64,000 nucleotides of DNA from a virus: the IMG/VR virus record IMGVR_UViG_3300020477_001468, positions 1 to 64,000 of that record; one strand, given 5' to 3'. Both the position numbers and the translations under genes were made by a program. A model generated the notes under the pieces. That model ran no database searches, was not told where the DNA came from, and saw only the letters and a list, made by a program, of their open reading frames with translations. This document shows positions 31,081 through 34,883 of the stretch, in pieces. The stretch's first letter is position 1, and every line of letters begins with the position of its first letter.

Positions 31081-31747
31081 CATATGTTGTTTGTTATTTA
31101 AAAATGATTGGACAAATCCAAAATACCAAAATTTAGATTCTGTTTATGATTTTTCTTGGGTGGAAAAACTGTATGCGATGTGTGAAAGAAATATCACATA
31201 TGAATTTACATTTTATTGCTTAACAAATATACATTTTAAACATGATAGTATTATCAATATACCAATTTTAAACAATAAACCATCAACGTATGATAAACTT
31301 CAGCTATTTCAAAAAAATGCCATAAAAGATCATCCAACTGTTTATTTTGATTTAGATGTAGTTATTACAAATAATATTGATCAACTTTTTGATATACAAG
31401 AATTAACTATGGTAAGTAAATTTTGTAGGAATCCATTTGCTAAAGAGACTGCACCTAATAATGGATCAATAATTGGTTGGATACCAAACAAATATTATTG
31501 GATATATGATATATGGAAAAATGCTACCAACTTACCTATAACTGAGGATCAATTATTGACTCCTCTTTCTACAACCTATTCACAAGAAATAATCTCAAGC
31601 TATACAGGAAATGAAGTTGATCTGTTGTGGTGGGATAAACCATATACTTTTAACAAAAAGCATATTGTTATATGTTTTAACAAACATAGTAAAAAACAAG
31701 ATTATTATCAGAATGAAAGTTTATGGATTAAAGATTATTGGTATTGA
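31073..31747 (+). CDS. Glycosyltransferase-like protein (KWG.KY-related)
   Basis: WVEKLY, CLTN, KLQLF, YFDLDVVI, NGS and EDQ. Start set to ATG 31073. Confidence 0.7.
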   Translation: MVNICCLLFKNDWTNPKYQNLDSVYDFSWVEKLYAMCERNITYEFTFYCLTNIHFKHDSIINIPILNNKPSTYDKLQLFQKNAIKDHPTVYFDLDVVITNNIDQLFDIQELTMVSKFCRNPFAKETAPNNGSIIGWIPNKYYWIYDIWKNATNLPITEDQLLTPLSTTYSQEIISSYTGNEVDLLWWDKPYTFNKKHIVICFNKHSKKQDYYQNESLWIKDYWY

Positions 31748-32346
31748 AATTCTTCTAAAGTAGTTTTAGACATCTCATTATCTAAAATTCTAAAAGCAAG
31801 AGAATATCTTTTACAATTAGTAGCCATTGCATGCCAACAATAAGGATATTTTTCAATAGATGCATGAGAATGAAAAACTGTTGATTTAACAGACCAACCT
31901 GGTACATCATTTAATTCAGTTGTTTTATCTTCAAGTTCATTATGAAGTTTAAAAACACCATCTCCTGTTTCTGACCAACAAAATAACATATTTCTTCCCG
32001 GAACATCAGCATTATGATGCCAGCTTACATACCCTCCCTCATCATACCATGTATTAAGAGCAATTGAAACTGCTCCAAGATAACTTGCAAGTTCATATAC
32101 GTATGGTGAAATAATTAAATAATCTCCATGATTGTATGGAGGAGACAAGTTATGAGAATATTGAAAATATGGCCAACAGCTGTGTTCGATTACTTTGTAC
32201 TGTTTAGCATGTTCAAGTAAATTACTCGAAACAGCTTGTTGATTATACAACTGTTCATGAATATACCTACTCTTCCCTACAAAATGAGGAAAGTTAACTT
32301 CAATCTTATTTAATATTGTTTGTACTGTAGCAGGAATCTTCATCAT
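31735..32346 (-). CDS. 2OG-Fe(II) oxygenase/cupin-like protein
   Basis: GGYVSWHHN...WHAM...RYSLAF double-stranded beta-helix pattern. Confidence 0.6.
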   Translation of the reverse strand: MMKIPATVQTILNKIEVNFPHFVGKSRYIHEQLYNQQAVSSNLLEHAKQYKVIEHSCWPYFQYSHNLSPPYNHGDYLIISPYVYELASYLGAVSIALNTWYDEGGYVSWHHNADVPGRNMLFCWSETGDGVFKLHNELEDKTTELNDVPGWSVKSTVFHSHASIEKYPYCWHAMATNCKRYSLAFRILDNEMSKTTLEEFQYQ

Positions 32347-33088
32347 GATAAAATTCTCTATGAAATTGATGTATTCTATTGAATAAAGGAGTTTTCACCT
32401 CCCGCAAAATAATATCCTCTTCTTTTACTCTCTCAACAATTCTATCATACACGTGTATAAAGTTATAGATGCAATCTTTGCCTTTAATATAATCCCATTT
32501 AATATCTGGTCTATACCATGGGTCATCTTTATCATTGACACCTAACATTAAACCTAAAGGAAATTGATCCCATTCTTGTATGTCCAGTGGATGGTATAAA
32601 GGCTTCCATCTTTCGGTCATCTTATTCTGTCGGAACCACAACCAATTATCCCACCATTCCCGCATAAAAGACAACGTTTTTTTATTGTTCCTATAAAGAA
32701 AAAATCCTCCATGAGGATGAGATTGAGTTACACCCTTCCACCAAATTTTAGCTGCTGCATATGGTCTAATTTTTGTGAAAACAATATCATTATCTTCAAT
32801 AAGAGAAAAGATAGTTTTTATTGCAGCTGATTGACAAAGCATATCAGCATCAATATAACAAGTTATCTCATAAGGTGTTTGAGGTAAAGCCCATAATTTA
32901 GCACGTTTGGAAGGAGGAGCACCACTTACTACATTATCAAAAACATGATTACCAGCATCATTTTTCCATTCATCAATAGTAAAAAGAGTTATCGGTATAT
33001 TAGAATATTCTTTTATACTATCTGCTAACATTTGGGCAGATGTTAGATAAGGCTTATAAACGCTGGCAACTAATAAGATGCCGTTCAT
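32306..33088 (-). CDS. Glycosyltransferase-like protein (GT-A, DxD)
   Basis: NGILLVA, RAKLWAL..TPY, YIDAD, HGG and WDQF. Start set to ATG 33088 by ATGA overlap. Confidence 0.7.
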   Translation of the reverse strand: MNGILLVASVYKPYLTSAQMLADSIKEYSNIPITLFTIDEWKNDAGNHVFDNVVSGAPPSKRAKLWALPQTPYEITCYIDADMLCQSAAIKTIFSLIEDNDIVFTKIRPYAAAKIWWKGVTQSHPHGGFFLYRNNKKTLSFMREWWDNWLWFRQNKMTERWKPLYHPLDIQEWDQFPLGLMLGVNDKDDPWYRPDIKWDYIKGKDCIYNFIHVYDRIVERVKEEDIILREVKTPLFNRIHQFHREFYHDEDSCYSTNNIK

Positions 33089-33663
33089 TTTCCTTTTGTT
33101 GTTTTCGCCTTTTTTGTAGTCGCTTTTGCTGGAGCAGACTTTGCTGGAGCAGATTTTGCTTCCATCATAATCATTGCTACACATGCTGAAATTTCAACAG
33201 CACTAGTAGATTTTCTTATTCGAGATCTCAAATCTTTATTATCTGAATTCTTTACTTCTTCTATTTCAAATGCTTCAAGTTTAATAGTAAATAATTCTTT
33301 TAACTTAGCAGCTTTTCTATCTTCATCAGTCAGTTGTGCAGGAGTAGCATTTTCTAAATTCTCTACTCTACTATCCACAGCTTTTACATTGTCTAAATTA
33401 CTATCAACACTATCCAATCTTTTATGTAATTCTTCTATATGTGGATGCATGTTTTTAGCTTTTTCAAGATCCATTGCTTGTTTACGTTCTGTAAATTGGT
33501 CTATAGCTTCTGGTCCACCTAATTTATCAATAGTATCTTGCCACTCCTCATGTCCTTCGGTAATAACATTGTTAAGTGTTTGATTAAATTCATTTTTGGC
33601 GCAATAAGTCATGCTAGTTTTGGTATCATCATTCCATATTGCTTCAATCAATTGTATTGGCAT
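33085..33663 (-). CDS. Putative fibre assembly/chaperone protein with Lys/Ala-rich tail
   Basis: Lies directly after the fibre gene with a GGAG RBS; helical/coiled-coil; ends AKSAPAKSAPAKATTKKAK. Confidence 0.45.
   Translation of the reverse strand: MPIQLIEAIWNDDTKTSMTYCAKNEFNQTLNNVITEGHEEWQDTIDKLGGPEAIDQFTERKQAMDLEKAKNMHPHIEELHKRLDSVDSNLDNVKAVDSRVENLENATPAQLTDEDRKAAKLKELFTIKLEAFEIEEVKNSDNKDLRSRIRKSTSAVEISACVAMIMMEAKSAPAKSAPAKATTKKAKTTKGK
33125..33159. repeat. 15-bp tandem repeat (TTTGCTGGAGCAGAY x2.3) encoding the KSAPA repeats
   Basis: Read directly from the sequence. Confidence 0.85.
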
Positions 33664-33677
33664 AATTTCTCCTAGGA

Positions 33678-34883
33678 TTATCCTGTTCTTTTATAGAGGT
33701 TGTAAGTTGTTGCTGTTAGACTACTTTGTACAGTTGCTCCTGTATAAGCTCCTGAGTAGTTGCCTGTGTAATTACCTGTGTAGTTACCTGAATAGTTACC
33801 TTGATGTGATCCTCCATAATACCTCGCATATGTTCCTGTATACGTTCCTGTATAAGTCCCTGTATATGTTCCTGTGTAATCTACATTAGAAACATCAGCA
33901 AGATTATTAACAAAGGCCCCAGCTGTAACCCATGTACCAGAACCTGGAGCAGAGGTACCTATTTGATAATCACCAATAGTTTTATTACTATTAGTTGACT
34001 GAGAAGTTAATAAAAAGTTTCGCCATTCATCTACCAGTGTCATAATTTCAGCCACTGTCATTTGTTGAACACCATCACCACCTGATCGTACTTTAAGTGG
34101 TTCTATGGCTTTACAGAATTGTAAATTACCAGATCCGCCTGAAGCATTAACAGCAATAGTGAAGTTATTATCATCGACTTTTGTTACTACATAGTATGCA
34201 TTAGCTGAAACAGTAGCAGAGGCTTGTACTACAGCTATATAATCACCTGTTTCCAACCCATGAGAATTATGAGCTATATTTGTTGGATTAGCAGCAGAAA
34301 ATGTACCATACATTAAACCATTTAATGCTTGATTGGCTCCTGTTACACCTGTTTTTCTTCTTAAATTATATTGAACTGCTCCATCTGTACCTGATGCTCT
34401 ATAATTATCCGTTGCTGTTGAACCAATAGTTGACCAAGTATGACTATCAGGTGCCGCAGTACCTAAATGATAACCACCAATAGGATATAAAGTACCAGCC
34501 CATGCATTTGCTAGTCTTAAAAGAATATGATCTTTCATTTCAGCAGATGTTAATGTTTGTAATTTATTTCCTGAAGCAATATATCGAAATGGGTAGACCG
34601 TACTACCTAAACCTTCTGTTGATGTATCTTGACTAAATTTATAATAAGTAGTCGTTATTGCAGAATCAGTTGGATGAGCACCAACATCATCATCTCTTAC
34701 TGTATCAGTGAATGTATAATCACCTGAATCGCCACCAGCTAAATTAAGATTAGCTCTTAAAGAAGTTGTTTGAACAGTAGCAAATTTATATAAAACAAGT
34801 GGTACAATACATGCATCAATTTCAGCATCTGACATTTCTCGTAAGTCAGATGTATTATATAATTTTAATGGGGTACCTGCCAT
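33678..34883 (-). CDS. Distal fibre/adhesin-like virion protein with C-terminal Y-x-G repeats
   Basis: Three P(L/F)K...(L/V)..(M/L)(S/T)..E modules, an HGL.TGD beta domain, and a YTGT/NYTG repeat tip. Confidence 0.65.
   Translation of the reverse strand: MAGTPLKLYNTSDLREMSDAEIDACIVPLVLYKFATVQTTSLRANLNLAGGDSGDYTFTDTVRDDDVGAHPTDSAITTTYYKFSQDTSTEGLGSTVYPFRYIASGNKLQTLTSAEMKDHILLRLANAWAGTLYPIGGYHLGTAAPDSHTWSTIGSTATDNYRASGTDGAVQYNLRRKTGVTGANQALNGLMYGTFSAANPTNIAHNSHGLETGDYIAVVQASATVSANAYYVVTKVDDNNFTIAVNASGGSGNLQFCKAIEPLKVRSGGDGVQQMTVAEIMTLVDEWRNFLLTSQSTNSNKTIGDYQIGTSAPGSGTWVTAGAFVNNLADVSNVDYTGTYTGTYTGTYTGTYARYYGGSHQGNYSGNYTGNYTGNYSGAYTGATVQSSLTATTYNLYKRTG
33739..33879 (-). repeat. 12-bp-period coding repeat: (YTGT)x4-YARYYGGSHQG-(NY[ST]G)x4-AYTG
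   Basis: Visible in DNA and protein; codons are synonymously diversified. Confidence 0.9.

Follow-up and report, generated by a model that had tools for sequence, protein, structure and literature searches.

We analysed a 64,000-nucleotide stretch of viral DNA (hereafter the window; positions 1 to 64,000 of IMG/VR record IMGVR_UViG_3300020477_001468, a single 75-kb contig) and describe on its minus strand a cassette of four genes, encoding in order a fibre-like protein that ends in a Tyr/Gly repeat, a helical protein, a predicted GT-A-like glycosyltransferase (GT) with a DxD motif and a protein resembling 2-oxoglutarate (2OG) oxygenases (Table 1). We hold with high confidence that the first of these belongs to a family of hairpin fibres with an obligate accessory cassette. 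The four genes close a ~30-kb minus-strand baseplate/fibre block that includes a T4-type baseplate module (gp5 OB domain, gp6, a gp7-like wedge protein, gp8 and a 1992-aa DUF4815 protein), and window G+C is ~32%. The gp6 homologue shares 40-43% identity with those of Methylophilales phage Melnitz and the Pelagibacter phages HTVC008M and Mosig, and 37% with that of cyanophage S-PM2. Judged from these sequence relationships, the source is an uncultured marine T4-like myophage akin to pelagimyophages and cyanomyophages.

A preliminary description of this DNA, made from the letters alone, had noted three further genes on the same strand after the fibre gene, and their order and tight coupling were confirmed. 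Between the stop of the preceding gene, for a 652-aa protein, and the fibre ATG lies 1 nt. The helical-protein gene follows the fibre gene after 14 nt that include AGGAG and shares an ATGA with the GT gene (probable GT start at Met33, 33088), which in turn has 41 nt in common with the oxygenase-like gene. Direct Pfam and PHROG scans of the four cassette proteins gave nothing usable.

Table 1. Features of the fibre cassette and its surroundings (window coordinates).
Feature	Coordinates	Strand	Description and evidence
Fibre-like protein, 401 aa	33678..34883	-	Open reading frame (ORF); N-terminal alpha/beta domain, lineage-specific insert, C-terminal Tyr/Gly tetrapeptide hairpin, conserved return tail (..GATVQSSLTATTYNLYKRTG)
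Arm 1, YTGT x4 + YAR, residues 336-354	33822..33878	-	Translation, Tandem Repeats Finder; within AlphaFold2 strand 318-343
Tip/turn, YYGGSHQG, residues 355-362	33798..33821	-	Counterpart of the semi-conserved turn of the family, Y-x-[RLA]-[FY]-[FY]-[GS]-G-x-x-x-G; predicted local distance difference test score (pLDDT) <50
Arm 2, NYSG NYTG NYTG NYSG AYTG, residues 363-382	33738..33797	-	Four N-x-S/T sequons; within AlphaFold2 strand 373-399
Private insert, ~73 aa, residues 188-260	34104..34322	-	Small beta domain; missing in 18/18 aligned homologues (alignment columns 208-280)
Helical protein, 192 aa	33085..33663	-	Syntenic in 72/80 fibre-anchored loci
GT-A-like glycosyltransferase, 260 aa (probable start Met33 of a 292-aa ORF)	32306..33088	-	73/80 loci; 573 IMG/VR relatives
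DxD motif D80-A-D82	32843..32851	-	Invariant in 82 distinct homologues
Double-stranded beta-helix protein, 203 aa	31735..32346	-	AlphaFold2 pLDDT 83.7, predicted template modelling score (pTM) 0.83; structurally nearest to protein prolyl hydroxylases
H110-H-N112, at the place of the HxD/E metal motif	32011..32019	-	H110 and N112 invariant in 80 distinct homologues; end of model strand 106-111
H172...R180-Y-S182, distal His and R-x-S/T expected for 2OG binding	31801..31833	-	Model strands 170-175 and 180-187
Fibre-like virion protein, 652 aa, upstream of the 401-aa fibre gene	34885..36843	-	phrog_6002 (virion structural protein), E = 1.9e-8; ends in ~5 repeats of ~30 aa
DUF4815 ('VrlC') protein, 1992 aa	37047..43025	-	PF16075, E = 2e-50; phrog_358; start marker of the host recognition cluster

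The C-terminus of the fibre-like protein had been read as a Thr-rich arm and an arm of four consecutive sequons around a short loop. The residues are indeed those reported: residues 336-382 (33738..33878) comprise YTGT four times, YAR, YYGGSHQG, NYSG, NYTG, NYTG, NYSG and AYTG. The two arms are not unrelated, since all 12 units keep a single four-residue phase (YTGT/YTGT/YTGT/YTGT/YARY/YGGS/HQGN/YSGN/YTGN/YTGN/YSGA/YTGA) and therefore form one [Y/H]-x-G-x array with a degenerate middle. At the DNA level Tandem Repeats Finder reported two 12-nt arrays with 84-86% match, and the units differ by synonymous codons (Tyr TAC/TAT, Thr ACA/ACT/ACG, Gly GGA/GGG/GGT/GGC, Asn AAC/AAT), in agreement with the selection at the protein level proposed previously. 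The array is spanned with zero indels by contigs from two runs, X1 and X2, that belong to different studies, so its length is no assembly artefact, and near-identical DNA occurred in marine metagenomes from at least seven studies.

Searching 5.8 billion proteins recovered 562 marine relatives of the fibre (E<=1e-3), all unnamed and many encoded on contigs of 140-167 kb; tblastn against 50,697 phage records gave zero matches. The N-terminal domain of the family is built of repeated modules (L-Q-E-M-T-D-A-E-I...G-x-Y-x-L...A-P-x-x-G-T-W), the array consists of [Y/F]-[S/T/A]-G-x units, mostly 27-45 of them, broken by a semi-conserved turn, and the closing tail is conserved (G-[AD]-T-[VI]-Q...[LF]-[WY]-x-R-[TI]-[AG]). 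Across 1624 units, position 1 was Tyr (86%) or Phe (14%), position 2 was mainly Thr (41%), Ser (25%), Ala (17%) or Val (9%), position 3 was Gly and position 4 was variable (Thr, Asn, Ala, Ser, Tyr, Asp and others). The 401-aa protein of the window is among the shortest family members. Many phages recovered through their GT (L088-L094, L138-L151) carry two tandem Tyr/Gly-hairpin paralogues of 490-1100 aa before the helical-protein gene, and some of these paralogues have several hairpins per protein and up to ~80 units per array. The literature searched yielded papers on host recognition clusters, none of which described the Tyr/Gly repeat or the four-gene cassette; this large fibre family, of which the 401-aa gene is a short member, is apparently undescribed.

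Several candidate relationships of the fibre were set aside. The AlphaFold2 model (pLDDT 80-94 outside insert and tip) and its N-terminal domain had no convincing PDB fold match by Foldseek or VIA-align, and the C-terminal domains of MACPF proteins, at a best Z of 5.7 that lies below the quoted noise level of the tool, were considered unrelated. Kinship with Pfam Gly-zipper_YMGG (PF13441), matched by 4 of 19 homologues (best E = 1.8e-11), was judged compositional, arising from a periodic Y-x-G-G-like pattern; PF13441 comprises short glycine zippers of membrane proteins and lipoproteins, and the fibre protein of the window does not match it. The conserved Pro of the P..GTW motif was rejected as a hydroxylation site before each hairpin, as it occurs only once or twice per protein and lies in the N-terminal domain.

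Evidence for the hairpin came from the way in which array length varies. Across 107 proteins with 28 distinct architectures, we used occasional six-residue steps in the array as markers and compared run lengths between the arms, having found a first palindrome score too strict near the irregular tip and its shuffle counts uninformative. The distance from array start to first marker in arm 1 equalled that from last marker to array end in arm 2, namely (12,12), (16,16), (20,20), (24,24), (28,28), (32,32) and (48,48), the inner runs showed a constant difference of 4 between arms, and the six-residue steps lay at mirror positions. A mirror model described these lengths with r = 0.74, against r = -0.10 for a model of translational duplicates. 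Both arms therefore gain and lose units together, as expected of paired antiparallel strands. AlphaFold2 predicted strands 318-343 and 373-399, with high confidence at the base and low confidence at the tip, and in combination with the mirror covariation this makes the out-and-back beta-hairpin, as claimed in the preliminary description, well supported. The modelled strand limits (336+380 = 343+373) suggest a register with Tyr opposite Tyr and Gly opposite Gly, and the Tyr/Gly face may be buried within an oligomer.

In the larger relatives Phage C48C1, P0028 and L079 the paired arms flank globular inserts, so the hairpin can serve as a stalk that displays a distal domain; the hairpin protein itself may act as a fibre tip. 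A comparable course is reportedly taken by the needle domain at the tip of the T4 long tail fibre, gp37, which is said to run out and back around His-x-His iron sites. The two are alike in a chain that reaches a distal tip and returns antiparallel, with the C-terminus near the start of the stalk, but the fibre described here gave no sequence match to gp37 and no fold match in Foldseek or VIA-align, its array lacks the HxH motif and its stalk is a strict four-residue Tyr/Gly repeat of highly variable length.

The association of this hairpin with the three downstream genes was assessed in 80 fibre-anchored IMG/VR loci, in loci anchored on the 573 GT relatives and in 75 informative oxygenase-anchored loci (at least 588 relatives), and the order of fibre, helical protein, DxD GT-A-like gene and oxygenase-like gene was nearly obligatory in all three reciprocal tests. 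All three downstream genes followed in the same order in 72-73 of the 80 fibre-anchored loci, with the misses at contig edges. Anchoring on the GT placed a fibre homologue upstream in every locus with upstream DNA, often as two tandem Tyr/Gly paralogues, and anchoring on the oxygenase-like gene placed a GT next to it in 72/75. Homologous fibres thus essentially always travel with the GT, a question that the preliminary description had itself posed. Among the 50,697 phage records, only one sequenced phage, C48C1 (Kyanoviridae), was matched by the GT and oxygenase-like proteins, and tblastn found cultured pelagimyophages to be without the cassette. In C48C1 the trio follows the gene of a 3347-aa protein that has several Tyr/Gly hairpins but no similarity detectable at its N-terminus; the cassette association therefore follows the hairpin and not the N-terminal domain. 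Three loci (L265, L266 and L272) have the reversed order, with the oxygenase-like gene before the GT, and it is thus the pair that is conserved rather than its order.

The GT of the cassette retains, besides the D80-x-D82 pair that had marked it as a DxD enzyme, an invariant R62, K64 and D174 across the 82 distinct homologues. Sub-threshold Pfam matches among 30 homologues were to GT2 (12/30, best E = 0.0017), PF03407 (3/30) and GT8 (3/30), a language-model feature match placed the protein with PF03407/GT8 clusters (0.96-0.97), and a PDB profile search returned no relatives. From these weak, consistent hits the 260-aa protein is predicted to be a GT-A-like transferase. A search of 1.84 billion representatives gave 1890 GT relatives, the distant ones (E ~1e-15) including proteins in which the GT domain is fused to tetratricopeptide (TPR) repeats and a PF13759 2OG-Fe(II) oxygenase domain. 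At the sequence level, this recurrent pairing of GT and oxygenase-type domains supports a shared pathway, and the TPR repeats of the bacterial fusions hint at a protein substrate. Such three-domain bacterial proteins (GT-TPR-2OG-FeII_Oxy_5) include P0223, P0241, P0245 and P0271, with a full-length match in a Magnetospirillaceae metagenome-assembled genome (L153:8001-10082). Marine Alphaproteobacteria commonly have the TPR-PF13759 part on its own (484 stretches confirmed by tblastn), and the first metal motif of the bacterial PF13759 fusions reads H-x-H.

Structural comparison of the modelled fourth cassette protein pointed to the 2OG oxygenases. Foldseek matched the model to ALKBH7, P4H and PHD2 (E = 1e-5), and VIA-align gave Z 9.3-10.0 over 137-152 residues to P. 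putida P4H, Tpa1, PHD2, Dictyostelium PHD, PBCV-1 vCPH and OGFOD1, with nearly all of its top 36 rows being 2OG oxygenases. The R-x-S/T pattern expected 8-10 residues past the distal His, for binding of the C5 carboxylate of 2OG, is present in the sequence as R180/S182, and conservation was high at His172 (77/80 homologues), Arg180 (79/80) and Ser/Thr182 (78/80), with Y101 and W109 also invariant or nearly so in the 80 sequences. A PDB profile search with this protein found no relatives, and matches to G-alpha, Fab and RNase III obtained with the GT, oxygenase-like and helical profiles were spurious. Of the 2OG-type oxygenase named in the preliminary description, the fold is thus borne out (a double-stranded beta-helix, Z ~10, with R-x-S/T), whereas the metal triad is not, Asn standing invariantly for Asp/Glu; since this family-defining carboxylate is missing, we term the protein oxygenase-like. 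Phage C48C1 encodes a paralogue of it (L233:6719-7393; record 40130..40804) that reads H-x-N...H...R-x-T and lies between DnaB-like helicase and NifU-like Fe-S assembly genes.

The helical protein, a putative chaperone in the preliminary description, whose gene directly follows the fibre gene in 72/80 loci, has no Pfam, PHROG or PDB relative, known fibre chaperone families included. Its C-terminus carries a conserved motif of ~40 aa (E.LF..KL.AFEI..[VI]K.SKN..LK..IRK.K[ST]..EV.A), doubled in some phages, and a Lys/Ala/Pro-rich tail. In two contigs from different samples (L039:11230-12915 and L043:11230-12915) helical protein and GT form one 561-aa ORF with an extra linker domain of ~170 aa. 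Comparison of the helical-protein family with the N-terminal extension of P0155 by hhalign found no relation.

The gp5/6/7/8 genes lie upstream of the DUF4815 (VrlC) gene and the cassette directly downstream of it, with fibre and GT genes, an arrangement that matches the definition of the host recognition cluster (PMC7029224). In pelagimyophages and cyanomyophages the region after VrlC is a hypervariable cluster of fibres, glycosyltransferases and radical S-adenosylmethionine (SAM) cassettes (Zaragoza-Solas et al. 2020, PMC7029224); fibres of such phages have resisted annotation, and the recognition of their streamlined hosts is mostly obscure (PMC7029224). Our locus shares the genomic place, the fibres and the GTs with the published cluster, but that paper calls the island non-syntenic and describes neither a Tyr/Gly hairpin protein nor a four-gene unit.

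The 652-aa protein encoded upstream of the fibre is confined to the clade of the window (L001-L008), with tblastn matches in 13/80 loci, and its ~5 C-terminal tandem repeats of ~30 aa read NIIKASDGGSTITMDTSDNVTI.... The private insert of the fibre (residues 188-260) is paralogous to residues 315-404 of this neighbour (BLASTP, 33% over 92 aa, E = 4e-6), which suggests, on sequence grounds, domain shuffling between neighbouring fibre genes; the insert also weakly matched Pfam End_beta_barrel (E = 0.014). On the other side, a plus-strand block of ~23 kb (8502..31747; ~23 co-oriented genes, lower G+C of 27-29%) converges on the cassette and is not conserved alongside it. Its last gene (31034..31747, plus strand; phrog_1962, E = 1.3e-12) encodes another GT and shares 13 nt with the end of the cassette; in 47/80 related loci it has relatives 3-6 kb downstream from the fibre, on the opposite strand, and the plus-strand genes within 29574..31080 had zero matches across the 80 fibre-anchored loci. 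The T4-type late-promoter word TATAAATA is absent between 31000 and 37300, sigma-70 and terminator scans gave chance-level results uninformative on transcription units, and three metatranscriptome runs from the same samples contained almost no matching words and were uninformative on expression.

The preliminary description had centred on the four N-Y-S/T sequons of arm 2, with the hairpin as dedicated substrate of the cassette; on that model the sequons would be the N-glycosylation substrate of the neighbouring GT. They are conspicuous (four in 16 residues, compared with 1.03 per 100 aa in the long ORFs of the contig) and consecutive (33738..33797), with a DxD GT encoded two genes downstream; they are not independent events, however, because each arises automatically from a YxGN unit followed by Y[ST]G. 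Asn at position 4 always creates N-[YF]-[ST], and it is one of more than 12 residues found there, occupying 243 of the 1624 units. Sequon counts per array ranged from 0 to 8 among 52 distinct homologues, and were zero in the nearest IMG/VR clade (L001-L008), in L035, L065, L066 and L080, and in the Gln-type arrays of L082-L087 (closest GT 52-53% identity), all of which keep the full cassette, so that we regard the sequons as incidental and no longer as a meaningful feature of the fibre. They also lack an acidic residue at position -2, and the sole GT of the cassette, a 260-aa GT-A-like protein, matched no oligosaccharyltransferase (OST) or GT41 model, distant kinship being possible; as a small GT-A-like protein it would be neither an OST nor an HMW1C-type GT41 enzyme. 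N-glycosylation at these sites is accordingly very improbable, and so is the view of arm 2 as a dedicated substrate for it. Still more remote is the idea that the array is a multi-core precursor, like those of ribosomally synthesised and post-translationally modified peptides, processed by radical-SAM spliceases at Y-G. The tip does contain a YG (YYGG), but the tip motif differs among homologues, the repeat is Y-x-G rather than x-Y-G, the gene sits in a structural operon and encodes a large folded N-terminal domain, and the conserved cassette includes no radical-SAM gene; the splicease suggestion is therefore dropped.

Two other readings take the enzymes or their partners away from fibre modification. 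The GT and oxygenase-like enzyme might act on host envelope glycans or nucleotide sugars, for example excluding superinfecting phages, with the link to the fibre reflecting late genes co-adapted to one receptor; this follows the published view that cluster glycosyltransferases modify the host surface (O-chain) (PMC7029224), and it could draw on the further GT genes in the plus-strand island (8502..31747) and on the C48C1 oxygenase paralogue outside any fibre context. We nevertheless consider it unlikely, as conservation with the fibre does not extend to the remainder of the island, whereas the trio is kept beside Tyr/Gly-hairpin genes across very divergent phages, even where the fibre has a different N-terminal domain. 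The helical protein, moreover, has no enzymatic features and yet is found fused to the GT, and in bacteria the related GT occurs joined to TPR repeats, typically protein-binding elements. Alternatively, all three proteins could lack catalytic activity and serve in structure or assembly, with the helical protein as a chaperone comparable to T4 gp57A and the beta-helix protein as a pseudoenzyme that, much as gp38-type adhesins do, binds or caps the tip of the hairpin. Phage fibre chaperones and adhesins are usually encoded right after the fibre gene, where these genes lie, and both the invariant Asn in place of the carboxylate ligand and a tip motif that is semi-conserved rather than hypervariable would suit such roles. 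Invariant DxD and other polar residues in 82 GTs, together with (nearly) invariant His residues and R-x-S/T in the beta-helix protein, would on the other hand be unusual for a purely structural function, and no homology to known fibre chaperones was found, which leaves this explanation improbable.

We therefore return to modification of the fibre. That the accessory trio acts on the fibre in some way, by modification or assembly, is in our judgement probable; that the fibre is covalently glycosylated is a tentative proposal with somewhat less than even odds. The complete reading is of a dedicated modification system, in which an enzyme of the prolyl-hydroxylase fold, its His-x-Asn metal site being unprecedented, would work with a GT-A transferase and a helical adaptor to decorate covalently a new structural element, a length-tunable Tyr/Gly hairpin stalk on a receptor-binding fibre at more than 570 IMG/VR loci, and to this we assign a probability of roughly 0.3. 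It takes the fibre to be the substrate and the Asn-variant enzyme to be active, both of which we infer. Several observations weigh against action of the trio on the fibre, in addition to the published host-surface view. The 2-His-1-carboxylate triad of the oxygenases is broken, with Asn in all 80 homologues and Asp or Glu in none, and the oxygenase-like protein may thus be inactive or do something else. Its family is not exclusively fibre-linked, given the C48C1 paralogue in a replication module, and 3/75 loci are unlinked. The GT has no curated Pfam match above threshold, and the window protein itself matches neither Pfam nor PHROG. Kinship of the cassette oxygenase family with the bacterial PF13759 domain was not detectable (hhalign probability 0.6%). 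Finally, the repeat offers no strictly conserved acceptor position, with Ala or Val at position 2 in 26% of units and Phe for Tyr in 14%.

In the explanation that we favour, the Tyr/Gly array is an antiparallel beta-hairpin stalk that reaches a short turn and doubles back, with a length set by unit number, and the C-terminal tail comes back to the globular N-terminal domain. Tyr and Gly would alternate on one face, and the other would present position 2, rich in hydroxy residues, and position 4, which is variable. Helical protein, GT, beta-helix protein and fibre would constitute one functional unit, with the trio acting on the fibre in late assembly: the helical protein may be an adaptor recruiting the GT to the fibre, the dense Ser/Thr of the repeat, and possibly its Tyr, would be O-glycosylated, and hydroxylation might take place before or alongside glycosylation.

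Systems that combine a hydroxylase and a glycosyltransferase for repeat proteins include collagen LH3/PLOD, mimivirus L230, the Skp1 PhyA/Gnt1 pathway and PBCV-1 vCPH. Like these, the cassette pairs a 2OG-oxygenase-fold protein with a GT-A-type transferase beside a short-period repeat protein, and GT-oxygenase fusions exist in bacteria; unlike them, it has a repeat without Pro or Lys, H-x-N in place of H-x-D, and activities on separate genes with a third, helical partner. Mycobacteriophages reportedly glycosylate their virions by means of phage GT genes beside structural genes, with virion proteins (capsid and tail tube) decorated. That precedent differs in the phages, targets and GT families concerned and has no hydroxylase-like partner or helical adaptor.

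Of the large phages in the ocean, those resembling pelagimyophages and cyanomyophages are among the most abundant. For these viruses, the locus defines a recurrent fibre module recognisable from sequence alone, combining a new repeat architecture, a stalk length given by repeat number and an accessory trio. The invariant His-x-Asn site would represent either a new variant of 2OG-oxygenase chemistry or a conserved pseudoenzyme, and attention shifts from N-x-S/T sequons to the Ser, Thr and Tyr of the repeat and to +16 Da shifts. Should the trio indeed modify the fibre, this would make it the first post-translational modification system aimed at a fibre in T4-like phages and would change the reading of the 'host-modifying' glycosyltransferases in these islands. 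Ultimately, such a system would be a phage counterpart of collagen hydroxylation and glycosylation, tuning adsorption or shielding the fibre.

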